DNA from: Tubiluchus corallicola
Taxonomy: Eukaryota > Animalia > Priapulida
Direction of reading: 5' to 3'
Assembly (NCBI GenBank): GCA_030141605.1
Contig: JAQGDQ010000040.1
Location: 682,001-746,000 of the forward strand
DNA length: 64,000 bases
In this document: in pieces, positions 11,291 to 41,200 of the stretch
Position numbering within the stretch: the first letter of the stretch is position 1
Layout: every line of letters begins with the position of its first letter
Translations under genes and position numbers: made by a program
The notes under the pieces: model-generated
The model's input: the letters and a program-made list of their open reading frames with translations, nothing else
Told to the model about the DNA's origin: nothing
The model's database searches: none

Positions 11291-14200
11291 TTAATCATCA
11301 ATATTTACATAAGGCAGTATATGAATATAGTCATTCTGGAGAGTAGGTAAAGAGAGGCAGGATGCCCAATCGTGCCACTCATTTTCATCATCATAGCAAC
11401 CGTTAACACCAGGCCACCTTTCATTACATAGTCTTTCAACCCGGCTTTCTGTGACCGGTTCATGTATTACTTCATATTCCTCTTCTTCTAGTACAACAGT
11501 TGATAAGTCAATAGGCAGGAGAGAAGGGCATTTTTTATCTTCAACTTTTGCCTCTGTTTGAGACTCGACAAGTGGCCTTCCAATAATGCTGTCAAATAGC
11601 ATTTCGTCAGTTGGATTCTCAGACAGATTGCTGGATGAGTGAGAATTGTTGAGATAAAATTTCGGCCTAGATTCCGTTTCTGCTTTAGGCGAGCTTGCAA
11701 CAGGTGAATTGAGTCTTGGCAAGTCAGGACTCGTCACAGTTTGTTCGTGGTATGAGGTGTGTGAGGTACCAGGAAGAGAGCTTTCTAAAAATTTTTCTAC
11801 CATTTCAGCTTTGGTCTGACTCAGGTCTGCACCCATGGAAAGCAATGCAGTACTGTTCTTTCTTGTATACTTCCTTTTCTTCAAAGAGTCTGGAATCACA
11901 GATTTGTGATCCTCCTCATGTGTCAAATCTTTGATTTTATGAGAAGTGATCATACTGATAGTCGGAGAATTTAAGGCTGTTGGCGTTTTTGCTTGCAGTT
12001 CTTCGATTAGTTGGGCAGTCGTTTTCACTTTAGCCAACCTAGGCAGTTTAGTTTGCATATCACTTTTGCTTGGTTTACTCAAATCGACGTCTGTCTGCAA
12101 AAATTCGGAATGATCATTGCTAGCCTTTCCCGTAAATTCGTCTGACCTTGACAAATTTCCCATCATACAATCTACACTGCGAGATTGTTTAAGATCGTTA
12201 TTCACAGTGGACAACACAACACCATTAATAGTGTCTGTTTTTGTATCTAACATTGGTTTTTTGACATTGCCCGTTTCAGGAGAAGTGGTTACAACCTTTC
12301 TTCTCCGTTTTTTATTAGCGGCATTTGTTACACTTAAGTCTTGACTGATGCCCTTGTTATTAGCATTAGTGATTAACAAATTTTTACTGTCAACAGGAAA
12401 ATCGACTGCACTGGATGACAGGCCAGCAGTACTTTGTGAATGTGATACTGACTTAGGCACTGCAGGACTAGTAAGCCTGCTGCATGATGTACTTCCAGCG
12501 GTCCTAGAGAGCTGAGAGGGTGGGTTTGAATAACTCACATTTTCTGCAGGACTAACAGGCACAGAACTAAAGCTTGGTGCTACCTTTTCACCATTAACAC
12601 CAGCTGCTTGTAAATGTTGTGAAGATGGCAGTAATTTTTGCCAACTTTTAACCAGTTTTTTAGCACGCTTTGCAAGTTCATCATTGTTGGTCTTTTTTCG
12701 CAATTCATTGACGAGTTTCCCAAGACGTGTTCGCTACAAGCGTAGAAAGAAAAATTAGTTACAAAAATTAAATAAACGTACTTGACATAATCATAGAAAT
12801 ATGGGAAAGTTTAACAATTTTCATAATAATAATAATAATAACAATAATAATGATAATAATAATTTTGCTTAGTAAGGTGCCAAAGCAGATAGGTAGGTAT
12901 AATTGACAGCATTTTTGTGAAGGATATATGACAATGAAGGCTTGAAATTTTATTAACATAGGCCTAACGAAGCCACTGCGACAGCTTCTTTAATTTGTTC
13001 AGGATGGAGCCCTACATGCAAGCAGAAAAGGCACAATCTAGTACTACTCAAGAAAGCCAATAAAAAACTAAGCAAGAAGCAGAAAATCTCTAAATTAATA
13101 AACAATTACTATCCCTAATCCTGTTTAACTAAAAGTATCTTGAAATTTTAAATGTGCCTCTTTTTACCTCCAAGTCTTCTCTAGTGAATGTGGTACGTTC
13201 CAGAATAGAGATAGCTTCGATGCATCCTGCCATATCCACAACCTAATACATTGATAAAAGAAAGCAGTTTTAAATGGCACTAATTAAGAAAATCATAATC
13301 TAATCTTGCACTAGAAGCCCTCTAGAAAAACAAATCAAAGTTCAAGTGGTTAGGTCAGATGAAAAGCAAAGTAAACATGTGCAATTAAGTAGTTATAAGT
13401 AAGCAAATTTTCAATAGAAAAAAATTTAAAGAAAATCAATGTCTAATTAAAGTCAAAGTACCAAGTCATTTTATTCATCATTTTTGCCGATGAAGTGCCC
13501 AAATGTACATTAAGTTTCAGGTTTTTAAATCAATTTTACTGCTATTGCTGCAACAGTAAGTAGCTTAAGATGCCTAAAATTTGATAATGTGATAACTTGC
13601 AAACTTCTTGTATCTTAGTTAATAAGAAGGACTTGATGCTGAGATCTGTTAGGAATTCACTGTGAATATAAATACCAGGTTGCTTAGCCCACCTCTGTTT
13701 ACCCTCTCTTTCTTTACCACCACTTTCAATTTCCTTTTCTTGCTCACTTTCTAGTCTTATTTATTCATTCTCTCCTTTGCTTTCTCCAAAACAACACGTC
13801 TCTAAACAATTAGCTTTGTTACAAATGTTCAACTAACAAGTGCCACCTCCTGTTTAGTGAGTGGATTTCTGCGTACATGCAAAAATTGAATGCACAGGTT
13901 TAGTTACACAAATTCCTAAATTCAAAAAATGAAATAAACAAACTAAGCACATAAATATGCCCCATAATTTTTAGATACAGATACGGTATTAAAAATTTCA
14001 AAAAATCTGGGAGTTAGGCCTTCTATGAAATTTAACAATGATAGTTGCATACACTAGTGAATGTTCTTTCCAATGATATATAGCACCATGCATTTCACAG
14101 TCCCGTTTTTCAAATCTCACTTTTAGGTGTTGAAACAACAATGCAAGCAAGTAATGGAAATCCCATTCTGGATGTAATAAAAATAGAAAGCTCTAGAGTG

Positions 14201-15737
14201 TTACAAATTTTGCAGCTAGATGGGCAAACTATTTTTGCTTAAAATCAATTCCATTCGGTTAGTAACACAACGACCATGAAAATATTTTGAACGTGCATCA
14301 ATGTCCACTATGGCTGGATGTACTCTAATGGATGATCTTTCTTATTTATTAAGAGTACTGAGCAGTACATAGATCGAAGGAGATTTAAAGACCAATATAA
14401 CCTCAACAGACATTGAAGTTTTTAATGCATTATTATGATTACATAAAGAATTCATAGTTATTATTAAACGAAGGAAACGTATAAATTAATGACATACCTT
14501 TTTCTGGCGAATTGTGAATGCGTCCATTGCCATGTTTCATGTCTTTGGCGTAAGTGAGCAGTAAAAGCTCATATAATAGTGAGGGCTTGGTTTGACTATT
14601 AACTGGACTGTATCATAATCTTGTAACTCTTGAAAATTTTATGAGAGAGAAAAGAGAATTGATATGCCAACCTTTTCCAATAAAGATTTTGCTCCTAGAA
14701 GAAGCAGAACTTTCACAACTTCAGTAACAACAGGCATAATAAGTTGCCATATTTTACATTTAGTGGAATAGGTAATAGGCTACTAGCAACAGTAGAAGAA
14801 CTCACTGTGAAGTTTCTGTCTGAACTGATTTTACAATAATGATAAATGTCACACAACCAAGTATTTCCCAAGTGCAAGTATTTGATGTAGTTCCAGTGTC
14901 ATATATATGTTTACATGGATTATATCTGAACTTACATTTTTGTACAGTGTTTGTGTCACCTAAATCACTGGAGCTTCTTACAACCAAACCAACAGTATAC
15001 AGAAAACAAAAAATTCAAAGAAATGCAGATTAGGTAGAAAAATGTAGAGGATCAGATTTGAGTTGAAAAGGTATTATTAAATACACTGACGAGGTGAAAT
15101 ATTTTGGGTTTTATCAACCAGTCATTAAATCGGATCCAAATGTCCAATCTATAAACACAAAAAGCAAATTATCAAAAAGATCCCAACGACAAGAACTGTG
15201 GATATATAGTTTGCGAAATGATGTAACTGTATACATACAATAATCCCACCTGAAAAAGAGCTTTCAATTTTGAAAGTCATACCAGAATGTGGACAAGATG
15301 AAACCATAGAACAATAAAAATATTTCAAATTCATGGGTGGTTCCACATAAAGAGCAACTAATCTTTATAACAATAATCGGAAAGATGTGCTGCACTACTG
15401 TAACGATATGCAAATAGACAGGAATAAAGAAAGAAAACTAGCACTTGTTATAGAAGAGCAACAAAATGTAGGTAAGAGTGGAATGATTTCCCTGATGCAA
15501 CAACAGTTAATGGAATTAAAAGGAGCTAAGAATTAAGTTACATACATAAAATAATAGTTAGTACACAAATCAGATGATTCTAACCGAAATCGAGTAAAGC
15601 CCATTTACGTCACTGCCTCACCCTTCTCATACTTATTTTGTTAAGTTATACAGAGTTCAGCTGACCATACTTACATTGCTGTGTTGGTCGATAGTCTTAA
15701 GAAGCTGTGCCTTAATATCACTAGGAGTATGCTGCAT
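11291..15737 (-). CDS. MED26: Mediator of RNA polymerase II transcription subunit 26, 526 aa, 3 coding exons
   Basis: Exons 15737-15675 (MQHTPSDIKAQLLKTIDQHSN), 13242-13168 (VVDMAGCIEAISILERTTFTREDLE) and 12733-11291 (RTRLGKLVNELRKKT...AKRAKKLVKSWQKL), all phase 0 with GT-AG borders. TFIIS-N-like N-terminal domain and the Med26 C-terminal motif WPGVNGCYD...WHDW..C......HILPYV. Confidence 0.95.
14280..15410 (+). mobile_element. Possible highly decayed Helitron Rep remnant in MED26 intron 1
   Basis: Short broken segments resemble Helitron Rep motifs: FFWRI... near 14498 and SNSWVVPH near 15326. No intact ORF, so support is weak. Confidence 0.25.
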
Positions 15738-18700
15738 GGAGCTGTACAAAAACTCTCAAAACTAGCAGAGACAACAGTTACCTCCAGCTAGCTTGCAATC
15801 ACACCGACATCCGCTAGTTGGCATAAAGTAGAAGTTGAAAATTGAAAAAGTATATAGCGAACGCCGTGCGGTTGCGGCCGCGATAGCTCCAGCCATAGTT
15901 CCAAAATCTGTAAAGAAGAAAAACGCTTCATTAAGGACCAACGGACCATTATAAGTTATAGTCAAGTCGGTAAACACTACAATATGAAGCTTACAGGTAT
16001 TAACAGTATTACTATAGAAAAAAGTCGCTACTAGCACTGCTATAAAGATAATTTGTATTAAAAGCGAAAGATTAGAGCTTTAAAAAGTCTTTCTTTGACA
16101 AATTAACAACAATAATACTTTTATAGCTCATGAGTCGTACCAAACGTATAATATTAACGGGTGCATGCCTTATAAAAGTTGATAATCATGCCGTTAAACA
16201 TGTAAACGAAGTGAAATTCGTAAGTGTTATCTGTGACAACTTAATCATGGCATAACGTGGGGCACAAAGAAAGGTAATCACTACGATTATAATATGATGA
16301 ATAAGATCATCCGGTAAACATTTTACTGTATAAATGCTGTTTGGTAAGCGCTAGGTTGGCAGGTTATTGCGTTTCGTATTTAGTGCTAGCAATTTTGTTG
16401 GCATTGTTTTATTGCTGCCTTTGTCCCGGGTATCTTTCCTTCATTGAATTTTAAAACATTCACCTACATCTTAAGTTATGTTATGCCACTGAGATGCTCT
16501 TGTGTAATGTTGTTGCTCTCGATGTTGCCTAATTTCATGCGAGCCTTTATCAGAAGTTTATACCTTTGAAAATGATGTGCAGCACAGTCAGCACGTCACT
16601 CTTTTGAAAACTTAAAAATTAATTCTGGCAATAGGTAGAACTCGGCAACCACAGCCACTGCTAGAGGAAGTGGGCTAAAATCTGCAGAACTTGTTCTAAA
16701 TTGCTCTTAATGCCACAGTGAGCGTCCTATAATATGGCCATACTGGGTGATGATGTTCTGCGATAACACTAGGTCAATCCTGTAAAATCTGCTGTGGTGT
16801 AGGTATCGTCGTCCAGAAATAAGAAAACATCGAAGCCTCACTTTCCTGAGGCTACAGAAGAGAGGGAGCACCCGATTCTGGCACAGGTTATTCAAGAAAA
16901 ATTCGTGCTGCACCCGTGACATTGACATGTTATTTAATTAAGATTAAATATATTAGCGTGTTTTCTCTCTCTGCTTAAAAACCTTGACAAATACATACTT
17001 GATTTTTGGCCCGAAAAAATAACAGTTGCTAAACGCTTGTGTATAGACTTCTGTGCAATACAATTTGACTGAATGATGCATAGCAATGTGTCGTTTTGAA
17101 AAAAGGTATAACAGTAAAATATACTTTAAACGTTTATTGATACAGAAGTTTCCACAAAACGAAGCATTTCCGGCTAGAAAATCTCCTAATGGACTGCGAT
17201 GGGCAAACAAATCATTCTGAATATGGGTAGCTGGAATCATTGGTCCCATAATGCGGTTGATGAAATCTTGTCCAATGATGACATCAATTCTTCTCTGGGT
17301 GTTTCTTCGTGGTGGCAAGTTCAATAGTCGTAGCTGCCGAACTTTTTCCCAAGCTTGTGCGTTTAGTCGAATTGGCTTTACTTGGAATGGAGGCGCTAGC
17401 TTTGGAATTGCATAAGCTTGAATTTGTAGACTAAAATCTTTAGACCCCTTTAGAATGAACTTCACTTTACTCGACTGTACTGACTCTATTACATCTGTGT
17501 TAAAGCGTGATATTTCTAGCTTGTATCTTTCCATGCGTAATAGATTAAGTCTAAAAGCTGCTCTGTCGCTGATACTTGAATGTTTGGCTCCACCATCAAC
17601 GTAGACAAAAACTTCACGAGCCTCTTAAGTTTGCGGATTCACTGCTGTGCATGGAAACGCTGGCATCACAATGCCTTCCTCTGCTGGATAGGTGACGTGG
17701 AAATCACGCTGCTTAACTATGATTTCAGTGACGCTTGGTTCTGTCTGTACAGATAAATGTTGGGGAGATAATATCTCTCGTTTCTCGCAAAGCGCTGAGT
17801 TGTGACTGGTACTTTTGCAGTGGAAACATGGCTTCTGTCTGTTGCAGTCTTTCATTAAGAGCCGGGTACTCAAACATTTGTAGCATCTTTTAGCATTGGC
17901 TATCATTTCCTTGTTTTTTTTGGATCTACCACCTTCTTGCATTCGTCACTGTAGTGATTGTCTTTTCCACAAAAGGCGCATCTCAGTTTATTTCTCGTAA
18001 ATGTTCTGAATAAGATTTGCAGTAGGGATAGCTTTTTCTGTTCCAGAACCCTGGTTCCGCAGCTGTGTTTTCTTAACTTGTCCTTCATTGGTTCGATGCA
18101 AATTTACTTCTTGGTAGTCTTGCAAAAATGAAATTAATTCTTCCATTTTTACTGCATCTCTCTTTTTGCCTTGATACAGCCGAAATCTATTCATTTCTTA
18201 CGTCAGATATTTAGGTAGTTTTTCTACTAACTCCCTCACGTGACTGTCGAGGGCTTGATTTGTTGTCTTGACGTTTGAGCGATATAGTAACTGAGCGTAT
18301 TTCATCGGTAATTTGTTCAAGGTTACTCAGGTTTTCTTTCACGTGTGGAACTGCTTTCAGGGACTCCCAATGAGCTTTCTCTTGAAAACCGGGATTGCCG
18401 TAAAAATTCTTCAAAATAGTGACTGCTTCACTGTACTTGTCGCCTTCCATTCCCAACCCTTTAATTTTGTCATACGCTGGTCCTTCTAAAACTCGATGTA
18501 GATCGTCTAATTTCTGTTTGTTGCTGAGTTGTCTGCTGTCACGGTTGATTTTGAATGACTCCCAGAAATTGTTCCATTGTAATGCGTTGCCGTTAAATTT
18601 TGCTAGTTCGATCTTTGGGAGCCTCGCGGTTGTAAAATTCATAGTAGAATCTGATGACATATGCGGTGGCGGACTGATCACGGGTTGCTTTTTTACCGTT

Positions 18701-19411
18701 TTCACCGACTCCAGGATTAACTCTGGCCTCTTCTTTGCGTTATTTTCGTTCGCGTTCGCGTTCTCGTTCTTCTTGAAGCGTTTGGAACATCTGTTGTTGC
18801 GATTGTAGAAACATTTGCATCATTGCAAGTGTAGCGTCTTGTTGTGACAGCGATCCGCCCTGCGCTGGTTGATTTACCCGTGACGTAGTTTTATTCAGCA
18901 ATACTTGATCCCTGGATGTAGTATTTTGCTGTGTTGGCAGCGAAGTGGCTTCCGTCTGATTTTCGTCAGACATTTCGACCTTATCAGTTGGTCTCGTAGC
19001 TTGAATTACATTGATGACGTTACCATTGCAACCGAATTCGGACAACTGCTTTGTAGTAAACGTTCCCGATTTCACCAGCTGAATTAGTAAATTATTGTCG
19101 CAACATTTCAAGCATGCCCATTGAAATTCGCCCAGCTTACTTAATGCCTCATAAAGTTTCTCTGTTAGTACATGATCTTGCTTTAGGTTTAAACAGTTTA
19201 TACACCACCAACGTTCACAGCTGTCACATATCAACCCACTTGCAACACTTTGATGACAATTTATGCATTTGTTATCTTTAGCCATAATTAGTCATTACGA
19301 AAATGTTCGAAAATTATTTACCGGTAGACAGACGTCCTAGCGAGTAGACGATCGCTCTTTCTTGGTAAACGTAGACTGCATACAAGTATCGTCGCCCACT
19401 GATTAGCAGAA

Positions 19412-19429
19412 AACTACTCTCTGCTACCA
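19412..19429 (-). other. Primer-binding site complementary to the 3' end of initiator tRNA-Met
   Basis: Minus strand TGGTAGCAGAGAGTAGTT begins 4 nt inside the 5' LTR end. Animal tRNA-iMet 3' ends typically read ...CTCTGCTACCA. Confidence 0.8.
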
Positions 19430-19433
19430 ATTT

Positions 19434-19730
19434 TGTGGTGTTGACAAAAGGTATAACAGTAGAATATACTTTAAACATTTATTGATACAGAAGTTTCCAC
19501 AGAAATATAGGTAAAATGATGTCTGCATATAATGTCTTGTAAAAGCCAACTGCTAGTACAGAATATAGCAAAACTAGAACAACAGTTAACTATTAGGTTA
19601 AGCCCATTTTTAGAATAGGTAACAGATAGATAGAAGCCATATCTACTACAGTAATAGCGGTTTTACAGGTTATTAATCTAATTGCAAATTAAATGTATTT
19701 TTTTATGATTTTCGGTCGTTCACAACGACA
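19434..19730 (-). repeat. 5' LTR (~297 bp) of the BEL/Pao element
   Basis: TG...CA ends, AATAAA on the minus strand near 19480, followed by the PBS. Its terminal ~69 bp are repeated at 17089-17157. Confidence 0.8.
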
Positions 19731-23858: not shown

Positions 23859-24567
23859 TCCAGCGATTCTGATTTCTGCTTTTTTGTTTTCCCACCTGGT
23901 TTTTGTTTGCTGCATGCTCTGTGGTTTTAATATGTGAATGTATCATTTTTGTAGTGCGGGAATTTTATTATAAATAATGTAAAAAATAATATTATAAATA
24001 ACTTTATATGATCTTATTGTTTTTTCTTTGTTCGCCTGAAAGTGAAACATCGTGTCTTTTCTTGGTTTAGTGGGATCTTTTTTAATTAGATTGGAAATCT
24101 CGGGTTAAATCAAGACTTTCTACAACAAGAAGCAATGAATAAAATGCAATGAAGCCGTTTTATTAAATTTTAATTTTAACGTATACATAATACATGGTGT
24201 TGAATAATACTACAAAATTTAATTTCCTCAATATATTTTTATCACAAACTGCTGCTTATATAAACTAATTGATTTGAATTCAATATAATTAAATTTCATG
24301 CTCTTATACCGGCCATTTGTTTAGTGCATTTTAAACGTACAATTTAAAGAGTTTTCGTTATAGCCTTGCAAGCTGGAGAAGATACACCTTACACTAGGCT
24401 CTGAATTATAACTACTAATTTATATAGCAGATATATACTACATAGCTACGTCCACCCGGCTATGAAGTACTAACTGGCATATGTGACATCAAAGACAGTC
24501 CAACTCTCAAAAATGATGTCGCTGAAAAGACTATATAGTAGGCCTACTGTACGGCTGCAACGCCGAT

Positions 24568-26942
24568 TTACAAGCTTCGTATTAGATCTTCCAGCTCGAT
24601 TTTGGACAGAAATCCATCACCTGAAAACAATAAAAAAGCCTATATACAAATTATCTGTTACTTTCTCTTAGTTTTGATTAAACCAAATTATGTTCTCAAC
24701 AAGTAATCAACAACATGTCATCAAGTAAGCTAATGATCATGTAAGAACAATGCATTCTTGTCTAAATGTGATTCTATTTAACAAGAAAAAGAGAGCAAAC
24801 AAAGGATTAATTGCTCTCGTGACCTTCTTTCCTCGTATTGCAAAAAAAGTTTTTTTCCGACTGCCCTGCTTTTAGCTTGTACGATTTCTTTTAATTAATA
24901 CTGTGCATGAGTGACTTGTAAGAACAAAAACATCTATTGCAACAAAATCTCTTTCAAGTGTCCGTCATTAGTAAGAAGGCCTTTTATCAAAAGCATCTAA
25001 AATTTTATTTGTCATTTTAAATATTTTTGCACATTAATTAAAGTCATTATAAAACATTTTTATTATTGTAGGTGCACCTTCCAATTGAAAAGTCCATAAC
25101 ATTTTGAAAGCCCACAAGGCGTAGCCAGTTTTTAAAGTTAGGGAGGACACGCACATAAAAACGCTCTTAAATTCAATTAAATAGAATTAAATTCATTTAA
25201 ATTTTAATTTATATTATAAGCACAAGGAAGTTCAAAACTCAATAAAAAACTTTATTAAATTTTAGTTATAAGTATCATTAATTATTTTTCTTATAAGCAT
25301 AAATTGAAACTTATCGAAGCAATGTGAAAATGTTTGAAACAATTATAATAGTCTCATTCATCTGAAAAGTCAAACAAGATTCCAGCGGCTGCCAGCGATT
25401 GAGAAGTAGTTGAATTCAGATGAATGAGACTATTATAATTGTTTCAAACATTTTCACATTGCTTCGATAAGTTTGGCGGTTAGGCGAGTAATGAGCCGTA
25501 AAGTTTTTTCCAAAGCCATTCGATAAAAATAAGGAGACTTTAATCTCACAAGTAAACTAAAGGGTTAAAGAATGTTGAAAAATCGCATCTTGTTTTGTTA
25601 AAGATCAATCAATTCTCTTCCCCAACTCTAGATACGTCCCAATATGGGAAGGAGTGTTTGTCAGTTTCAGTTATAACCTAAGAACAAAAAAACTTTTAAT
25701 TGAAAGAAGAACGTAAAAGAATTAGATAGAAAGCTGCACGAAGATACGTTCTTTTGAAAGCACACCTTTGTATTATGTATTTAAAAACAAGGAAATAAAA
25801 TACTGTTTATACCGTTTTCATCAAGTGTTTGCAGAAGTTGTTTGGGTTCTAAGCCAGTGTCTTCTACTAGTTCGTTTAACACATTTGTCAACAAGATCAG
25901 ATGTTCTTCACTACTCACTTCTACTTGGTAATTTGTAATACGAAGCACTCCCGATTCAGATTCTGTAGCGGATCTCTTTTTAAATCTAAAACAATGGCAC
26001 AAATAATACATGTTAAAATGATTTTAGCGATAAGGACAGTTTCTTCACTAGAAATCACAAATCAAAAAAGCAAAGACACAGTTTCGTGAAAACACCAGAC
26101 TATTTTAGTCTGGAATTGTTCAATATAAAACATATTCTACTTAGAATTGTTAGAATTTAGTTAGAATTGGACGTAATCTATAATATTTATGGTGTTTGCG
26201 TACGCAGAGCACTGCAGATTAGATTTAGACTAAATTTTCTCACCGAAACATGCGCACAATTTACGTCTCAAAAATGTCAGATCATAGAATTTACATTTTA
26301 AAATGTACATATTCCAATGTCTGCAATGCATATATGTCGATGGAAGCATTGAGATAAAGCATTTTATATATCATATAAAGACTGCTTTCCAACCACTTAC
26401 TTAGCAGGTAAAGCGCCTACTTTGGAAATAGAATATCTGGGTTCTTCCTTTGTCAAGAAATAGAAATTAAGCCAAGGAAATGCAAAAATATGTCATACTG
26501 AATAGAGGCTGCTTTCCGGCAAATTGCCTAGGTGGTAGATCGCCTGCACAGCAGATTAGCTAGAGCAAAGTTTGAGTAACAAATTTTTAATCAATTTCTT
26601 CCCCAAGCTGACAGTGGCAGCTAATTTCGCCAGGTGGTGGAAAAACAGAAAGAAAGAACTTATTAACCCACATAAAACAATAATTGCACTTTAATAACTA
26701 ATGAAATAACTTTACGATTGATTTTTGCAGTCAATGAAGGTAAAATTGAATAGTCAGTGTACTTACTCGTGTGTTATTTTTACACCGTAGTAACCGCTGC
26801 CTGGTCTGACGTCTGGACTAATGTAAGTGTTTTTTCCTACGGGATAGTGAACACCACGACTCTTACTAAAATTACAGCCTTCAGCGACCATACAAGCAGC
26901 TAATACAGTTATCAACAAAATCATTGCCGGCTTCATTATCAT
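24568..26942 (-). CDS. Small secreted precursor (133 aa): signal peptide, Gly/Tyr-rich cationic peptide, KKR cleavage site, acidic EF-hand domain
   Basis: Exons 26942-26767 (MIMKPAMILLITVLAACMVAEG-CNFSKSRGVHYPVGKNTYISPDVRPGSGYYGVKITH, ends phase 2), 25985-25813 (E-FKKRSATESE...VSSEEHLILL...QLLQTLDEN, ends phase 1) and 24620-24568 (G-DGFLSKIELEDLIRSL*). All borders are GT-AG and in frame. Splicing creates a canonical EF-hand loop, DENGDGFLSKIE. A non-coding first exon ends at donor 27269; AATAAA on the minus strand at ~24158-24163. Confidence 0.8.
25307..25474. repeat. Perfect 60-bp inverted repeat with a 48-bp spacer (intronic hairpin)
   Basis: Arm 25307-25366 (aaacttatcgaagc...tcattcatctgaa) is the exact reverse complement of 25415-25474. 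Confidence 0.92.
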
Positions 26943-27400
26943 CTGAAAGGTTTTACAAAGCATAAATACGGCACATCCTTACATTAGTATAATAATGCAA
27001 ACTGTTGCACCAATACTGAATGAGGTATTAAACAATTTATTCTTCAAACATAACTGATTACAGCTTGCACTGTATTTTGTAGCTGCATATAAATATAACG
27101 TACAAAGCAACACATAGTTAAAAGAAACAGAATGTCAAATATACCACACTTACCAATACGTCTTTAATTTGCTTTTCATTTACAAAAAAATAATATACAA
27201 TATCGAAGCGCAAAAACGTTTGTTTGCTTTCGAACTTGGACATGTAAACGCGAACGAATTTTACTTACCGTATTAATTTGCTTTTTCTTTCGCTGGAATA
27301 ACTTGCGCTTTCTCGGAGAAGTTAAAATAACAAGATCTTTTTCGAATTATTATATCTTGTATGAGTGTACGTGTTGGTACGACAGCTAAACGTCCTCCCC

Positions 27401-27442
27401 TATTTATACTGTTTCCGTGTAATTCCCCAGCTAGGATTTCCA
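27401..27442 (-). promoter_or_regulatory. Putative promoter of the secreted-peptide gene: TATA box and kB-like motifs
   Basis: Minus strand TATAAATA at ~27401-27408, GGGGAATTAC at 27419-27428 and a GGATTTCC element at 27434-27441. These lie about 135 bp upstream of the first splice donor (27269). Confidence 0.5.
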
Positions 27443-29266
27443 TTCCTACTCCCACGAGTGTTTCCTCCCTCCGCGTAAAATTTACACCCGGACACCGATT
27501 TTTAACGCTTTTTGAAAAGCGTGAATGCCTTCAAGCGTTACGGCTGTAAATTACAAGTAAAAATGTTGACCCAGCAAGCGGTTCTGTCTAAAATTTCGTT
27601 CATATAACATTACGTATTGATTTAAAATGAGAACAGTATCGTTCATTTGGAAAATAATGACCTATAATTTTATACTATTAGCGATATTTTTTATATAGTG
27701 GCGTTTAACCAGCATCCGGAATGCGTATGCGTTACACGTTATCCACCCGCAGAATAGCTGTGGAACAAAAATCAATAGAAAGGAACTGCAGAAAAAATAA
27801 TGCATAACGCAGGTCTGATAAACGATTTTGTCTATTGCAATATCCAATTCCAATAAATCTAACCAATATAAATAGATTTTATTTATCTAATGGGATGTCT
27901 AGTTTATTAGATCTCTAATGTTCCAGTTTCAGATCATCAGATAAATTTCTGGAAATAATGTTTTGTAGTTTCAAAATTTGAAGTAAAATGAAATTTTATT
28001 AGTCTGTTAAGTTCTGTTTTACATCCTATTCGCTTTTAGTAGTCCGGTGATATTTGTTTGCGTTACCGCCAAAAAAATTCGTTGCCCATCTGACTAACCA
28101 TCCAAACACATAAAATGACATAAAATAGTTTAGTTTTTTCGAAAAAAACTCAGTTAAATAGATAATAATCTTAATTACGACTTTTATTGTACAACATTGC
28201 AAACAAGTATAAAATACAACAATTTAGGGTTTTTACATAACATTTATGCCTACATTTATTATAACAACATTTTTACTATGACAACAGTTCAGCAACTTTA
28301 AAAAATTCTGCACGAATAATACAAAAAATACTGTTATATTTATCTGTAAACAAAAGTTATCTGTGGTTTTTGTTATTATACAATTAACGCACAGATCTAC
28401 GCATTGGCATTTGGGTTCGCAAGTTTCCATTCTGTCAGCTAAAATTTTTTGTGGAAATTCTGAAATTGAGCGTAAAAACTGCAACGCCTGACACAGAGGC
28501 AGTTCAGAAAGAAACACCAACATTTCCATTAAATGGCAAGAAACAGAGAGGAAAAATGACAATTCCTTCCACCTAATAAACTATAAACTTTTACATTATG
28601 GCGAAACCTCAACAAAGCCCAGTTGTGCTAAACTCAGGCATTGAGTTGTTTGCCGTTCTGGCATTGCAAAGTACGTACCTGATAACAAAAATGTGGCAAA
28701 CACTGCGTATATTACCGGGTTTCACTGACGTTTATGATGTCTTAACAGTCACACAGAAACACTGTAGTCCGAAATTATAGGTGACAAAACGCAAAAAACA
28801 TCCAAACTTAGGTTACATGTAAAAGTCACTCTTCGGAAACTTAAAACCATGGTGTTAATACGCAATCGCGTAATTAAGATTATAGTGATTGGTTTTGTAA
28901 CCATTTCAAGTAAGCCAATTTAGTTCATGTTAAGAAAAATACTTTTGCAAATTGAAGCACTTTTTCCTTAACAGTTAACATCATTGAACATTGTGAGATA
29001 GCAATTGCTAGGCCTATAAACTTTTCTTTGTGGCCTTGTTTTGTGGGGTACTATGGAAGCCGCAACCCCTACAATACTATAAATGTGACACTGCCACTAC
29101 TACTTCGAATTCTGCAATTGTTGACATCCAAGTTTTCAAAACCTACTGTGTAAGACAGCTTATCGATTAGTCAAGCTTTAAGAACATTCTCATTTCGCCT
29201 ATTTCTGGCAAGTTCTTATAAAGCGAGGGCTTATAACAGAAACTTTGTAAGATGCTTCATGATATC

Positions 29267-32200: not shown

Positions 32201-35200
32201 CACTCTGAAACATGGATTCCACAAAATTATCACAATTGTGTAGTGGCTTAGTAAGAAATCCATCAAATTCTGCATTGTATTTCTATACATAAAATGTTAT
32301 GTGTATTGACAGCGAAGGTACCTTTTCCAGTACTTTCCATTCTGGATGCCGTATTTACAGTATCACCAAATAAACAGTACCGTGGCATTGTCAGACCAAC
32401 CACACCTGCAACACAGTGCCCTAAAAATAAATTTTATAAAAAAAAATTATAATTATTTATTCACACGTTTGTTGCTGATATGAATGAAGGTTTGCAGCAG
32501 TCTTGCAGATAAAAAATTATTAAGATGTCACTTTAGTAGGCTTGACTGGGATCTAAAATACCACTGCCTCAATTAAGCATGAAATCAATTGTGCACAAGC
32601 TGATTGTTGATTCAATAAGAATATACAATACACAAAACCAATATACAATAGTCAAAACAAACTAACAAAAACCAATTCTCAGAAGTAGTAACCAGCTTAA
32701 GAAACCTGCATTTTGCTATAGCTTACACTTTTAAAACTTGTTACGTACCTGAGTGTAAACCTATTCGTAACATTAAAGGCTTTTTCGGCATGTGTCTTAT
32801 GACAAAGGTCCCACATTGGCTGAGCAAGTCCAATGCCATTGTTGCTATCTCTCCTGCATGGCGCCCTCCATTACGAATTGGCAGTCCACTTACAACCATA
32901 TATGCATCGCCAATTGTCTCAACCTGTTCAAAATATAATTGAATTTTGGAAGAAAAAATGTAACAATAAATTACTGTCAGTATGCTTGCTAAATATATAC
33001 AGAGACCATAGTCATAGCAACTGACTATGTGACTTTTTCCTAGTCAAAATTATGGCCTTTTCCCTGACTTTTTTCCTGTAACTTTATTATATTACACTCG
33101 TCTTGCAATGTTAGACTAATTAGACTCTAACTTTGAAAGGTTCTACTTTTTCAACAAACTTGAAAAACGGGGAATGTGAAAAAGTTGTGATACACCCTGG
33201 ATTTCAGTCAGGGACGTGAACTTTCAGCTTACGTAGTCCCTGGTTCAAATCTAGCTTACATCCCAACCTTTTCATGCTTCCCGTCTTTCAAGTTTGGTAT
33301 CATAACTTAATTAATTGTGAGTTTGTTCCACCATTAATAATAATCTTGACATTAAGATTGCAATGAAGCAAAATTTTCTTAATTAAAGTAATCAATTAGC
33401 CTTAACATATTATTTTTAGATATTAAAGTATGACTTATCCGTTAGCACTGCTAATTTTAGCTTATTACGCTTCAGAACTTTTTAGAATTTTTTAAAACTA
33501 TACGCATTTTATTTAAGCTGCAATAACACAATAACAATATCGTGCATTTGTTCTCAGTCGCATCCCATCTCTGTGCTTTAGAATTACCTTATAAACGTCA
33601 TACTGGTCAATTGTGTTATCAAACATTGTGTACAGGTCATTGAGTAAGGTTACAACTTCCATTGGTGTACTCATTGCAGATATGGATGTAAAACCCACAA
33701 TGTCTGAGAAGTAGATGGTAACGTCCTCATACGTCTCGGCGTCAATGCTGTACCCCATCTTGAGCGCATCTGCTACAGACCTGATTACAAAAGAAAACGC
33801 AGACTGTCAAAAATCTCTAAAATGCCAACAGTAAATTGTTGATTCGATTCGCTGACTATTTTCTGTACTTCCTTGCTGCATTAATACAAACAAACTTTCA
33901 GTTTTGGCTGAACATAATTGTTTAGCGATAAATTCTAAAAGCACATGCACTTCATAAGTAGAACCGTAATAAGTAAAATTCAAGGAGAAATAACAATAAA
34001 TGAAAATAGTAATTTTATAAAGTAAGAGTGGAAAATGTTACTAATTAACGATTATAAGATAACTAAAAATTGAAATCATCTAAAAGTCCGCTTCAGAAGT
34101 ATAAAATTACTTACTATCATGATAGCTGATTAATTTCGATAGTAGTAGCTGTTTGCAAAGAAATTTTAAATATCAATTTAATGTTAAAATACGATATCCG
34201 TTTAGATAATTATGAACTGTATTACGGCTACGCAGTATGCATTGCGACTTGATCAGACTGGCTGGTACTTAACAGAAATGTTATGCTATGTTTACAAAAT
34301 TAGTAGCCTCCAAAAAGTTAACTTACTTCGGAAGCATACTATATAGCAGCTGATCAGTTTTCTTCTTTTCCTCTGCCAACTGTTCTGTTCTTTCTCTCAC
34401 AATATCCTCTAGATTATTGGAGTATTTTTCCAGCATAGCAAACATGCTATCTACTATGTTAGTTTTCCTATTAATAAAGTGAGACTGTTAATACGCGCCG
34501 TATAAGGGATCACAATTGGAGGACGTTGGCAATTCTGAAATATATTCTAATCCTACCAGAACCATAAACATTTAGTAGGCTCTGCTTTAATGTTGGACAC
34601 TAGCTTGCAGGGTGCCACACTTCATACATAAAACGCCATTTGCTTTACGCAGAAAACTATACCTGTTTTGAACTTCTTAAATCCGGATCTTAAGTAAACA
34701 GTAAGCAGCCATAAAGACCAGAATGGGGACTGGACTTTCCGTGGCTCCGTGAAACCTCCGGTTTCAGCAGATCTACATAGCCATGGGATACGGATTTAAT
34801 TGGTAATGTAAACGGAACGCATGTCCGTCCATGACCTACGAAGGGCATGTTTTTTATCTTGTTTTTCACTGAAGCTTCCTATTTCATATTCTCATCCGTT
34901 CATTACAGTCAGTTAGCAAACATTGAATCATTAAGTCCGGGTAGTTTAAGAATAAGATCAATATTAAATTATGCAATAATTTAATAATTACACAATATAC
35001 TTTGAGATAATAATTATGGTACTTGTGAGTGTGAACACTTCGGAGCACTTCGACTACCGCACAGTCCTGACCAAACACTTTTTAATGCATTCGAGGGACC
35101 TGACAACGTGTTTTAATAACACAAGGTAAAATAAGTCCACAAATCTACATCTATTGCAAACGGGGATGCAAGTGGACGAAGTCATTAATAGTGCGAACGG

Positions 35201-38200
35201 ATTAAGAATATTCAGGACGCGTCCCGCATTTTCTTCGCAGTGTAAACGGGGCTTAAAGAAGTTCTCCTGAATGTTAAAAAAACTAGATGTGTTCCTAAGT
35301 TAATTTTTCGGCTAAAGTTTACAGTTTCCCATACTCTAGAAATTAGTTCGCGAAGCGGATTAGGATTAGGATTAGGGTTAGGGTTAAAGTTGGCTTAGGG
35401 TTAAAGTTGGCTTAGAGAAAGGGTTAGGGTTGGGACTAGTGTTAGGGTTGTTGTATTTAAATTGTGTGAGAAACGCCTTCGAATTTTTCAGAAAGCAATA
35501 GGTTAATGTATTTTTTTAGAATCTGCACTTTCAAATTCATCGGCGAAACACATTTGCATCGTATTATTCTGATGAATTAAACTCCGAATGCTTGTCAATA
35601 CAGTACAGTACAGTACAGTACAGTACAGTACAGTACAGTACAGTACAGTACAGTACAGTACGATACGATACGATACGATACGATACGATACGATACGATA
35701 CGATACGATACGATACGATACAATACAATACAATACAATTATGTTAATAACTCACTTTCCCTGATTCATGCCTTTGAAGCCGTCATAGATCAAGTCAAAT
35801 GTTGGTCTGGACTCCGGCATTTCCATCCAACATTGCTTCATGATGTGAATGGCTTCGGGCGGCGCTGACTGTGGCGACACCGAGGGACGTATAAGCGGGG
35901 GTGGTTTCTTTATCTTCCTTATTATTTCTACATAGTTGGTACAGATGAAAAATATTAGTCACAACACCACAACTATTAAAAACGCATCAGTCTGTATTTT
36001 CGTTTTGTTTTTTGGAAATTAACAGGTTCAATGGCCTTTGAAGTAAGTATTCACTGCAGGTAGTCAAGAGAAGCTGTATGGCACGGTTGACTGAACTGTG
36101 CCTGATTAGGCCATTAATCACAGGTAAAAGCTTTTCTAAGTCTTAAGCATAAAAGAGTACTTTGCCGCCTTAATCTTCGCGTTGAACGCAGCGCGAAGGT
36201 TCATAAATTTAACGAATCTGATTGTTTTATTTTATTAAAGACGATTAAATACAAATATATCAACATAGCAATATGCCAGAAAATGTTAATTAAAATTTGC
36301 TAAATATACTGCTGTAACATTAGATAAACGTTCAAGCGAGATTTGAAAATGTTAATCCGAGTTATTTTACAACTGAGTACGTTGAATGCTAAAACGTGGA
36401 AAAATAGAAATATCGACAAAATCAAAATAATATAACATAACATAATAAATCACGCAGTTACTGCTTTGGTAGCCTGTTATTTGAGTTGATTTCTGTATAC
36501 TACTTGTGTATATCTGTAAATGTTGATTACCAGTCGCATAAATTTTATATCCGCCATAGAGGTCACGCTCAAATTCTGTACAACTTGCTTTTTACGTTTT
36601 ACATTTTTTAGCATAATGATTCAGTGAGAAGGTTTTCCTCTTACCAAAATCAATGACGTAGCTGCAGGTTGAATCATCTCTTTAGTCTTTCGCGTTTTCA
36701 GAGAAAATGGGAAAAATTTTATAAAAAATCACGTCGCTACCTACAGAATCTGGGGAAAGCACAAATGCTAACAAATCTAATTGCAAAACTTGTCTTAACG
36801 CGCTCTTTCTATGCATAGGCCTACTCCTCAAAATAATAAGTATATTTCGCGTCAATGGTTGCATGCATCAGTATCACAAATTTCCAGCAGCCGATTAAAA
36901 GTGACACCACTCCAGACACTCTCGACCTGGCGGAAAAAGAAATGCTAGCGCAATTAGAATTACATGAATACTTTTTGTGAATGTACTGGTTTCCTCCTCG
37001 TACTCAGCACACAGCTAATTATGGTTTACAAGACAAGTACTAAATGCTGGATATATGCTTCCATTCATTGCTTAGACTGGATGAAGTAACTGATCGGCTT
37101 ATTGATCAAATTTTTCATCCTATGTTATTTGACACATGCAGTGTGGTGTTTCAGGAGTCAACAGTTCTTTTCTGTTTTTTAAAACTAAAATGTTCGTATG
37201 TTGCCACTTGCAGCTGCTCATAAATGCTAAACTTGGATGGGTCATTTCTGGTAACTTTGTTTCAGGGGAAGGTCAATGCAAAATTTAAAATGGTTTTCTT
37301 TTCAAAGTAGGCCTAGTTATATGAACTTATTTATGAACTGCATTAATTAACTAACAGTTCAGCATAAAAACATGGAATTGAATAAATTTTAAAAATGTAT
37401 AACTGTGTTCACATATAGTTTTTAAAGCAACTTAAGAACAATTCAAGTTTTGAAGTGCAATTCTCATTTACCATGCTGTGCGATAACTACACAAATAACA
37501 TTCATTTGCTACATCTCAAACGTTCGTCTCGGGTATATGACGCTTATTTTGGTAACTTTTGGCTTTAATTACCTTCTGCTGTTAGATTTATGTTGCAAAA
37601 TGGTGGCCGCCTCAGCATAACTTCCTGACAAATAATTGCAAAGGAGTAGACGTCGCCCATTTGGGTTCCTTTCTTCATCACTATAGTGTCCCTGAGTAAT
37701 TCTGGAGCTGTCCACAACAAATCTGAAAAGCAACAAATAATATAGTGACTTTGGATGTACCTTCGATCCCAAAAGCAGGGAAATAGCAAAAAAAAATTTA
37801 AAACCTGTTGCCCGTATTTTGTATTGCCAGTAAGTTTTGGAGTTATCAGGGTCAAGAGTACCTCAAATTTAATATTAAAGGTTATTTAGCCAACATACAA
37901 ACATTCAAACAGATACATATCTGAGCATTTCTTAATTATAGTCACATATACTAAAGCTGTGGGTTAGGGACCCTCGAAATGGCAATACGGCTGCCTAAGT
38001 TAAAGGGCACCTCGAGAAGGAATAGAAAAAGAGAAAGAAAGCGATGGGTGAAAAAGAGAAAAGGGAAGAAAGGCACAGAATACCAGAGAAGTTCAGTGTC
38101 GATGTAAACTTGTGATGTAAACATTGTGACTTAACAAGTCTTGTCAGAAATAGACTGGTTCACTTCCCCTATTTCTGATACCTGCATTATTTGTTGAATA

Positions 38201-41200
38201 TGTCTGACAAACCGAAGAGTATCGATGAGCTGTGTGCATGTGACCGTAAGAAGCTGAAAGCCATTACGAAGGACGATATGATAGAAATCATACTGGCTGC
38301 CCCCCCTTCGGCCGCTTCTGGTGGTGCCGATTCAGCTGTGTTGAAACGCCTGGATGAACTATCTAATAATATTAACACTAAATTTCAAAATCTGGAGGAA
38401 AAATTGTCCCAAAAGATTGAAGACAAACATTCTGAATTAAAGACTGAAGTGAATGTCTTGCGTCAAGTTGTTAAAAATCAACAACGGTTTTTGGAGCAGG
38501 TTGACGGTCGTCTCCGAAACCAGAACTTAATTATGATGGGCTTAAGTGAAAATGAGGATATCGATGGTGCTAATTCCGACGATGATAAGATAAGGAAAAT
38601 TCTTGATGTAGTGGATGTGGAAGCTGCTGTCGTCTCATACAAGAGACTCGGTACAGCTACGAATGGCCGTGATCGTCCTGTGTTGGTCATTGTTGAAAAT
38701 CATGACCAAAGGGACAATGTCGTGAAGAATGCTAATAAGCTTCAATCGTCTGCCAATGCTGCTGTGAAAAAAGTCAGAGTGAAGCGAGACACCCACCCTG
38801 CAGTTCGTGCCGAATGGAAGCGGCTATTTGACGCTGAGAAGTGCGAACGTGACAAACCTGAAAACCGGGGATGCCATATTGAGTTTGACAAGAAAAAGCG
38901 TGAGATCACCCGGGACGGTGTTGTTATTGATAGTTGGCAACCAATGTCTTTTTTGTAAACAATCGAGATAGTTGCACTGAACTCCGTATTACACATTGGA
39001 ACATTAATGCCGTGAAAAATAAACTGGAGATCGACTTTGTTCGCCAAAGTTTATGTAAATCTGATATGATATTCTTAAATGAAATCAAAACTCCGTTGAA
39101 GTTCACAATGCCTGGGTATAAAACTCTCCGAACTAATCAAGCAGCTGGTCACCGTGGTGGTTGTGCTATACTGATTTCAAATGTGCTAGCCTCTTCGATT
39201 CAATCGGTCGAATTTGGTTCCGATGTTATTGTGCTACGCCTCAATAATATACCTGGTATTGTTTTTGTATGTGTTTATCTCACGCCATCTGACTCTCATT
39301 ACCACTCACTTGAATGCTTAGCAAAAATCAACGAAGTTATGATGTCCAACCCTCATGATCAATTTGTGATACTTGGTGATTTGAATGCCCGTTACGGGCC
39401 TGCTATTAACAAATTTTTACGTAATGTTAGTGACAGTGGTGCACGATATCTTGCTTCCGAGGATTCGATTGGATCCCCGAATGAAAATGCCAAAGTTGTT
39501 TATAATTCTTTTAACTCTTTAATCGTTGTAAATAACATTCAGTATAAAGGCAGAACATTTAAAAGTAATCTGACGTATAGAAAACGTGAGAATTGGATTT
39601 CTGAATTAGACTATTGTCTTATTTCTCCTGCACTAATCGATAGTGTTGTCAATTTCACTGTCAATCAAGACTTACGATTACCTTCGAATCATGCCCCTCT
39701 GTCTGTGATTTTTGATATCAACATGTTATCTCGTGGAGCCTTACCTCACAATCTTCTTATCAGATCCGAAGCCTTAGGTGCTCATGCAGCTGAAGTTAAA
39801 ACTCCAAACCGCAAACATTGTAGCCGTCAGATCCGTATTGCTGAAACAGACTGTGTCGAATTTCAGAGAGTGATGTCTTCAGTTGAACCTCCTGATGATG
39901 TGGATGATGTAAATAGTTGTGTTACTGATATTAATAATGTTTTCCGTGATAAACTGATTAGATGTAAAGCTCCGAATCGTCTCATCAATCGTTATCAGCC
40001 GACGGATCGTTGGCGCCGTATGCTCGAGCTCAATGATTCTAAGGAAATATGGAATGCCATAGACTGGAAAGGAAACACGATTGAATCTGAATCCTTTGAA
40101 TCTCCAACTAGCGAAGAATTCAAACGTCATTTCGAGGATCTTCTCAACCCAGATCGTGATGGTCCAGAGGACTTATTATCACTGTGCGATGGTCCAAGTA
40201 TCCCTATCACAGATGATCCGATCGCTTTCGATGAGTTTGTTTCTGCTGCTTCCGAATGTAAATCAAGTAGTAGTGGTGGACCCTCTGGTAGTCCTGGTGC
40301 TGTGTTCAATTTTATCCCAGATAATTGGATTAATTACCTGTGTTTTGTTCTGAATTTCATATTCTTTTCGCGATCTTTCCCGATTCCGTGGTGCTTTAGC
40401 CGCCTTGTTACTATTTTTAAGAGAGGATCTCGTAAGGACTGCGATAATTACCGCGGTTTGTCAATCATGGATTCCCTTGCGAAAATATACGATCGAATTT
40501 TGTGCAAACGTTTAGAGATGTGGTTCAAACCCGATAGGGAGCAGGCTGGCGCCCAAAAGGGTAGATCCTGCATTGAGTGGATTGTGACTCTAAGACTATT
40601 AATGGACTATGCACTGTTTAAAAAGAGGAAATTATATATCGTTTTCGTAGACTTCTCGAAAGCTTACGATAGAGTTCCACGTTCTGGTTTGATTAGGGCC
40701 TTGAGAGCTCTTGGCTGTGGTCTTGCGATGCTTTCTGCTCTTGCTGCCATGTATGTGAATACGCAGCTGGTCCTTGGTGCTGCCGTTATTGGTGTTACAT
40801 TAGGTGTGAAGCAGGGTTCTCCGTCATCCTGTTTCCTCTTCACACTGTATATTAACCCTCTTATTCGTGAATTAAAGTCTAGATGTGGTCTCGATGGTTT
40901 CCTAGGAAATTTACACTGTTTGATGTTGATGGATGATACAATCTTATTGTCAACATCTAGAGAAGGTATTATTCAAAAACTCAGTATCCTTATTGAGTTC
41001 TGTGATCAATCCGGTATGAAGGTGAACTTAAAAAAGACTAAATTTATGGTTATTAATGGCGATGCTGTTGATCGTCTGGACCTCGTAGTGAACCCCCTTA
41101 CTGTTAATCACTGTGACTATAACGTTTACCTCGGTGCTGTCTTTAGCTCAACAGGAAAATTTAAACCCGCTCTGGAAAAACACTGCGAAGACAAATATTG

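Follow-up and report, generated by a model that had tools for sequence, protein, structure and literature searches.

A candidate allatotropin-type prepropeptide gene with an EF-hand tail and altered processing signals in the priapulid Tubiluchus corallicola

Analysis of a 64,000-nucleotide stretch of Tubiluchus corallicola DNA (hereafter the window) points to a minus-strand gene that very probably encodes a real, orphan, secreted prepropeptide of known protostome design, and whose nearest match is likely the allatotropin/myoactive-tetradecapeptide precursor. Our reading of the whole, held tentatively and at somewhat less than even confidence, is that of an allatotropin-derived prepropeptide that would be cut at a KKR site to yield a 38-residue, non-amidated, cationic peptide with a role most plausibly in host defence. 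The layout, which reads as new in the earlier note, has precedents, since EF-hand tails following a dibasic site are described for mytimycins and for several protostome neuropeptide precursors; the new part is likely an altered processing code imposed on this known design.

The three-exon model put forward in the earlier note is borne out by the DNA, in which the coordinates, GT..AG introns and an open 133-codon frame were all found. Specifically, coding exons of 176 nt (26942-26767), 173 nt (25985-25813) and 53 nt (24568..24620), the last carrying the second half of the EF loop, its exit helix and the stop codon, can be joined with no internal stop to give 133 amino acids. They are separated by a 781-nt phase 2 intron (25986..26766), lying one codon ahead of the terminal Phe of the peptide, and by a 1192-nt phase 1 intron (24621..25812) that interrupts the EF loop and contains a 168-nt inverted-repeat element (25307-25474). 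Upstream, a non-coding first exon is predicted at 27269..27375, its 5' end being placed from a TATA box at 27403..27408, and is followed by a 326-nt 5'UTR intron (26943..27268) that abuts the ATG, an arrangement common among secreted-peptide genes. A poly(A) signal, AATAAA, lies approximately 400 nt past the stop (24159..24164). All of these features are on the minus strand.

Splice sites were ranked with a generic matrix. By this measure the 5'UTR-intron donor at 27268 falls in the 99.7th percentile and the donor and acceptor of the 781-nt intron in the 98th and 92nd, respectively; the donor of the second coding intron is mediocre, at the 78th. That second junction is nevertheless the one that builds the EF loop. 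When all 585,614 GT..YAG pairs on both strands of the window were joined and scanned with PROSITE pattern PS00018, a match spanned the junction in only 8; of these, two form strict EF loops, and a single one, the modelled junction, combines a strict loop with at least 50 open codons upstream. The junction building the EF loop is thus far beyond chance, and none of the other acceptors tried in the last intron produced such a loop. Codon usage also supports the modelled frame, which scores +0.13 as against -0.61 and -0.37 in the other two; the support is clear for exon 2, at the 96th percentile of 242 open frames, and weak for exon 1, at the 72nd. GC content is likewise higher in the exons (38-42%) than in the introns (30-33%). 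From these features of the DNA, we consider it very likely that the gene exists and is spliced as modelled.

A silent or decaying gene copy, or an incorrect splice model, would account for the mediocre second donor and the unremarkable codon usage of exon 1, and the allatotropin processing signals discussed below could have been lost by decay. This explanation is given little probability, however, as the 133-codon frame has remained intact over two introns, the junction null stands at 1 in 585,614, the TATA box, UTR intron and poly(A) signal are in place, and the difference in GC content between exons and introns persists. In an independent DNA-type run (X1), the covered parts of both long exons were identical, and the contigs span exon-intron borders with no joints. 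No contigs that were at least 80% alike yet different fell on the exons, a blank that carries no weight on expression or copy number. A further run (X2) touched only a repeat upstream.

The encoded protein has the parts of a secreted prepropeptide, as the earlier note had held: a signal-like N-terminus, a dibasic KKR cut site and an acidic EF-hand tail can all be read in the sequence. Residues 1-22 (26877..26942), which reach a hydropathy of 3.1 and end in A-x-G, are the probable signal peptide, judged by hydrophobicity and the -3/-1 rule. The predicted mature peptide begins at residue 23 and runs through residue 59 (26767..26876), the last codon being split by the intron, and then to the terminal Phe60, which is followed by the KKR convertase site (residues 61-63; Phe60 and KKR together at 25973..25985) with no amidation Gly. 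This 38-mer (residues 23-60) has an N-terminal Cys, the only one found after the signal, and a computed mass of 4.3 kDa, a pI of 9.4 (9.36) and a charge of +2.6 at pH 7.4. Calculated monoisotopic masses are 4259.10 for residues 23-60, 4671.39 for 23-63, 8516.19 for a disulfide dimer and 1553.75 for 47-60. The peptide described in the earlier note as rich in Gly, Tyr, Lys and Arg is present, but its richness was overstated, as it contains 5 Gly, 4 Tyr, 3 Lys and 2 Arg (13% Gly, 5% Arg) and carries only the modest charge given above. The best of five structural models predicts a C-terminal beta-hairpin (strands 17-24 and 29-36, pLDDT 81-84), in agreement with the amphipathic terminal strand previously proposed; the five models disagree with one another, with overall pLDDT values of 46-72.

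The tail (residues 64-133) is strongly acidic, with a pI of 4.1 and a net charge of about -11 to -11.7. Its larger part, residues 64-117 (25813..25972), comprises predicted strands, two helices and the first half of the EF loop; the PS00018 match starts with residue 114 and is interrupted by the phase 1 intron at loop position 4, so that the canonical, intron-divided loop claimed previously is confirmed. A PS00018 scan returned only this one canonical loop. The degenerate EF-hand that the earlier note had placed ahead of it did not hold up: the 12-residue stretch in question agrees with the loop consensus only at Asn3, Ser9 and Glu12, and in a single-sequence model of exon 2 (mean pLDDT 72; strands 7-9, 13-16 and 19-22, helices 26-43 and 47-56) it appears to be preceded by three short strands with no entering helix.

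The closest counterpart of this architecture emerged when 22 allatotropin precursors from the supplement of PMC8557429 were set beside it and compared by eye. Around the cut site, H-x-[FY] precedes the basic pair in 20 of the 22 and is present here as H-x-[FY]-x-K-R. Similarly, a single D-x-[NDS]-x-D-G loop is found in the tail of 16 (four others are truncated and two are without it), the tail described here also having one EF loop, and an [LMV][ST]N motif stands before the loop both here and in 14 of the 22. Spacing is also alike: 44, 46 and 47 residues separate KR from the loop in three precursors for which this was counted, as compared with 50 here, and 23 residues separate [LMV][ST]N from the loop in three counted precursors, as compared with 21. 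Total length is similar. Individually, the Lineus lacteus precursor shares 9 of 13 loop positions and, like the present one, ends 7 residues later, and the Hemithris precursor shows 10 identities in 28 columns, with one gap, up to the cut. In shuffled sequences, the core motif arose 8,057 times in 1,000,000 (0.8%), a longer version 50 times in 1,000,000, and the version with a basic residue 14 upstream in 0.13%; the tail motif arose in 9,472 of 500,000 shuffles in its three-letter form (1.9%) and in 2,839 of 500,000 in its four-letter form (0.6%). These figures apply to motifs that were picked after the references had been seen, in a comparison that carries no alignment E-value.

All 22 references carry the amidation signal G-K-R, where K-K-R is found here, and the residue after His, usually Gly in the allatotropins (H-G-F), is Glu. 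The dibasic site that marks the N-terminal end of allatotropin is missing, its place being taken by a single Arg46 followed by Pro47; a basic residue exactly 14 upstream occurs in only 2 of the 22 precursors, whose peptides span 12-15 residues. As a consequence, the predicted product is a 38-residue, non-amidated peptide, as opposed to a 12-15-residue amide. Since neither the amidation Gly nor the N-terminal cut is present, the gene falls outside the allatotropins proper, and descent from an allatotropin-type precursor, as a diverged offshoot, is suggested at slightly better than even odds, a level set by the post hoc choice of motifs and the lack of an alignment E-value. In moths, an intron reportedly divides the allatotropin peptide close to its end.

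The likeness of the loop is in part generic, because EF-loop tails after a basic site are found not just on allatotropin but also on MIP/allatostatin B, NPY/F and precursors of another molluscan family (PMC8557429). Annelid myoactive-tetradecapeptide precursors likewise bear a C-terminal EF-hand (PMC2762978), and a conserved precursor domain is said to tie allatotropins to orexins (PMC5818035). The earlier note mentioned neither the match to allatotropin-type precursors nor the common occurrence of EF-hand tails on protostome neuropeptide precursors. HCS2, going by a title, is reportedly a further EF-tailed neuropeptide precursor. In the literature searched for such a layout, neither this gene nor any non-amidated offshoot of allatotropin was found described.

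Homologue searches run exon by exon brought up no relative. Exon 2 gave no match at E up to 0.001 against 1.84 billion representatives, none of its 39 candidates among longer proteins was confirmed, and exon 1 yielded no candidate among longer proteins. In the ESM Atlas, exon 2 was without a usable match, and exon 1 drew only phage lipoprotein-like clusters scoring below 0.9, which were taken as a likeness of signal plus Cys. Nothing under E 1.3 was found among PDB sequences, and a fold search gave no match at E up to 0.001, its best Z scores (exon 2, 4.4; peptide, 2.1) being uninformative since the models were partial. Pfam returned no family for the peptide at E up to 1 or 10, the query being short and lacking its last residue; for exon 2 it returned HTH_56 (E 0.004-0.085, below the cut-off), which was rejected as a chance match of two helices, and for the exon 3 frame alone EF-hand_6 over positions 12-29 only (E 0.044, again below the cut-off). 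No paralogue was found within the window. None of the exon-wise queries reached 60 residues, each lacked half of the domain, and sampling of the lineage is thin, so that the blanks they gave say little on novelty.

Orphan status in these exon-wise searches, together with the acidic, calcium-loop-bearing tail and a strong TATA promoter, could also suit some other secreted effector, cut or uncut, such as a component of mucus, slime, venom, a pheromone or a mineral-binding protein, for which the resemblances to allatotropin and to antimicrobial peptides would be incidental. Such a function appears distinctly unlikely, given the sharp switch in charge at KKR, from +2.6 to -11.7, and the placement of the motifs exactly at the cut, both of which argue for a peptide processed from a precursor of known type. 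In a search for a link to nemertean toxins, the sole mention of an EF-hand was calglandulin, which is unrelated.

As for the role of the processed peptide, defence is the leading reading, at a little short of even confidence. It draws upon the contrast in pI and charge between peptide and tail, the predicted hairpin, kappaB-like sites in the promoter, the loss of amidation, and precedents among mussel antimicrobial peptides. The promoter sites, scored against the kappaB consensus, span 27419..27465 (minus strand) and match at 9 of 10 positions at 27419-27428 and at 8 of 10 at approximately 27433-27442 and 27456-27465, the cluster lying upstream of the TATA box and within 60 nt of it. At least two 8/10 sites occurred in 93 of 6395 50-bp windows (1.5%); across the window as a whole the pattern is not enriched, with 32 occurrences observed versus 35.7 expected.

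One precedent is mytimycin, a published antifungal of just such a layout, reported from Mytilida only, for which the function of the EF-hand tail is termed unknown (PMC8004829). As presented there, mytimycin shares with the gene described here a signal of 22-23 amino acids, a cationic peptide of (here putative) defence function, a dibasic site, an anionic EF-hand tail of 70-75 amino acids and a non-coding first exon; it differs in having 10-14 Cys in the mature peptide, ten of them invariant, as opposed to one, and in that variant A1 carries two canonical loops, 35 residues apart, where one is found here (PMC8004829). Myticalins similarly place a linear cationic peptide (23-42 aa) between signal and anionic tail, possess an exon composed of 5'UTR alone and, running up to the ATG, an intron of approximately 300-340 nt, and have a signal consensus to which the present signal conforms, by eye, at 10 of 18 defined positions. 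Their pI exceeds 11 and their Arg content 10%, however, compared with 9.4 and 5% here, an amidation Gly is often present, the available text reports no EF-hand, and their second intron is in phase 1 and follows the dibasic site, where the corresponding intron here is in phase 2 and precedes it (PMC5577615). Mussel antimicrobial peptides moreover form expanded families, unlike this gene, which lacks a paralogue in the window.

The antimicrobial role suggested in the earlier note still leads, with mytimycin as its precedent (PMC8004829), but the likeness to attacins and diptericins offered there is not supported as kinship. The peptide does resemble these in being poor in Cys, containing Gly and ending in a predicted beta-strand whose last residue is aromatic; there is, however, no Pfam match for the short query, and attacins are approximately 190 aa long with an N-terminal pro-piece and diptericins approximately 8 kDa, without an EF tail (PMC7924397), so that both size and the side of the pro-piece differ from those of a 4.3-kDa peptide with a C-terminal tail. 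Defence is further weakened by the modest charge (+2.6), the 5% Arg and the disagreement among the five fold models, by kappaB-like sites that are unenriched overall and the lack of tandem copies in the window, and by the fact that the EF-tailed precursors compared are mostly those of neuropeptides.

This last point favours a neuropeptide or hormone precursor, that is, an allatotropin paralogue confined to this lineage, or else a strongly diverged orthologue, with a non-amidated product that would signal via a GPCR and an EF tail that would serve as a granule-sorting piece. The preponderance of allatotropin, MIP/allatostatin B, NPY/F and one molluscan family among the EF-tailed precursors compared (PMC8557429), a cut site of KR type rather than furin type, the absence of a tandem paralogue from the window and the allatotropin-like motifs themselves are all consistent with such a role. 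Signalling is the main rival of defence, though the less likely of the two in our estimation: the amidation Gly is missing, Glu replaces the Gly of H-G-F, Pro follows Arg46 and there is no N-terminal dibasic site, allatotropins are described as amidated (PMC4357254), and neither a cationic hairpin nor kappaB-like sites would be expected.

Under the preferred reading, that of an allatotropin-derived defence peptide, the following sequence of events can be proposed. Expression would be induced via the kappaB-like sites and the signal removed behind Gly22, after which the acidic, single-EF-hand tail may bind Ca2+, whether in the Golgi or in a granule, and so mask or pack the cationic part; the earlier note had likewise proposed that the tail could neutralise the peptide, and that the Cys could allow dimerisation. 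A PC1/PC2-type convertase would then cut after KKR and a carboxypeptidase remove the basic residues, so that Phe becomes the free C-terminus. Pro47 would block the former N-terminal cut after Arg46, such that the product would be the long 38-mer and not a 12-15-residue amide, and the amphipathic terminal hairpin of this product may act on microbial envelopes.

A more specific target is hinted at by the end of the peptide, which, once trimmed as predicted, would be an alternating strand closing in a free Phe, with a His two residues before it. Bacterial outer membrane proteins (OMPs) terminate in a strand of this kind, and in beta-proteobacterial porins that position is typically occupied by His (PMC3582582); the Gly of the GXXphiXphi motif (PMC13721041) is Lys here. 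The last ten residues were scored against a beta-signal matrix made from 49 real OMP C-termini (19 of 19 porin and 30 of 85 TonB-receptor matches), two rows of which fall back on a central open reading frame, with one (L125) probably in the wrong frame. In this post hoc test they reached 10.6 bits, exceeding 29 of the 49 leave-one-out OMP scores. The same score was reached by 11 of 100,000 shuffles (145 with the Phe fixed), by 6 of 69,525 10-mers of MED26, by 10 of 27,874 internal OMP 10-mers and by none of 103 neighbouring ORF ends, and the next best 10-mer in the precursor attained 2.5 bits.

Taken at face value, these scores would permit a scheme in which a co-opted allatotropin/orexin-type precursor has become an immune-induced antibiotic that jams BAM, a kind of darobactin of animal origin: without the amidation Gly, a free C-terminal Phe would be exposed on a hairpin that imitates the OMP beta-signal, and the EF-hand tail would act as a Ca2+-dependent storage cap. 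Darobactin mimics the OMP terminal strand and LlpA possibly does so (PMC10135246); both are bacterial products, in contrast to the animal-encoded peptide considered here, whose binding to BamA is putative. This scheme is a long shot, and both the His and the Phe at the peptide end are already explained by allatotropin ancestry. No animal-encoded beta-signal mimic was found in the limited collection of literature searched. A sponge-endosymbiont peptide is tabulated in one paper as proposed to act on BamA.

The gene links reports, so far scattered, of EF-hand tails on the precursors of neuropeptides and of antifungals. If the proposed ancestry is true, it represents a neuropeptide precursor whose processing has been rewritten, through loss of the N-terminal cut and of amidation, to give a longer and different product, and would offer a clean case for how signalling genes turn into effectors. 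Should the peptide be antimicrobial, it would constitute a new linear antimicrobial scaffold; with BamA as its target, it would stand for a novel kind of defence in animals and supply a lead for antibiotics. As no more than a neuropeptide specific to its lineage, it would be of modest, specialist interest.

The gene lies in animal DNA with a GC content, over the window, of 30-41%. Its surroundings include an esterase D gene (approximately 4.7-7 kb), MED26 (11.3-15.7 kb), a retrotransposon remnant (17-19 kb), a receptor guanylate cyclase running from approximately 61 to 29 kb and a LINE (38-42 kb). MED26 assigns the host to the protostome invertebrates at large: one record is 91% identical and the next 32%, the best named matches being nemerteans and molluscs at 30-33%; in three quick trees, the close relative of the host joins chelicerates on a long branch with SH-aLRT values of 87-98.

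At least four unrelated families of neuropeptide precursors carry EF-loop tails, acidic C-terminal parts that follow a basic cleavage site, among the sequences seen in the supplement of PMC8557429; EF-hands go unmentioned in its main text. Relatives of the peptide gene, the minus-strand model predicted to encode a secreted precursor with such a tail, did not surface in searches made by single exon with queries of less than 60 aa, despite the existence of a transcript-length assembly from a close relative. The latter is shown by a database record 91% identical to MED26, which occupies 11291-15737 in three coding exons. Between MED26 and the peptide gene lies a broken LTR-type element (16953-19504) consisting of PHD-like, gag-like and protease-like pieces, in which a direct repeat of 71 nt has its two copies at 17089 and 19434.

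On the other side, upstream of the peptide gene and on the same minus strand, a receptor guanylate cyclase gene (29267-61700) ends at a distance of approximately 1.9 kb; its product has a long, low-complexity C-terminal region. One of its introns contains a LINE (38179-41999) composed of an apparently intact ORF1 of 259 aa and an endonuclease/reverse-transcriptase frame of 1021 aa. Also inside the guanylate cyclase gene is a degenerate, interstitial (TTAGGG)n-like array (35360-35449); the telomere repeat of most arthropods is TTAGG, so the array faintly suggests a host outside the arthropods.

Smaller repeats were observed within and beside the peptide gene itself. Its last intron holds a near-perfect inverted repeat of 168 nt (25307-25474; about -67 kcal/mol, calculated as DNA) that is MITE-like in character, and self-inverted elements resembling it are present at 33155-33296 and 55317-55429. 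Lastly, a short multicopy element (27687-27734), which precedes the TATA box by approximately 300 nt, is the sole piece common to many unrelated contigs of X1, a sequencing run that behaves as DNA, and to one contig of a second run, X2.
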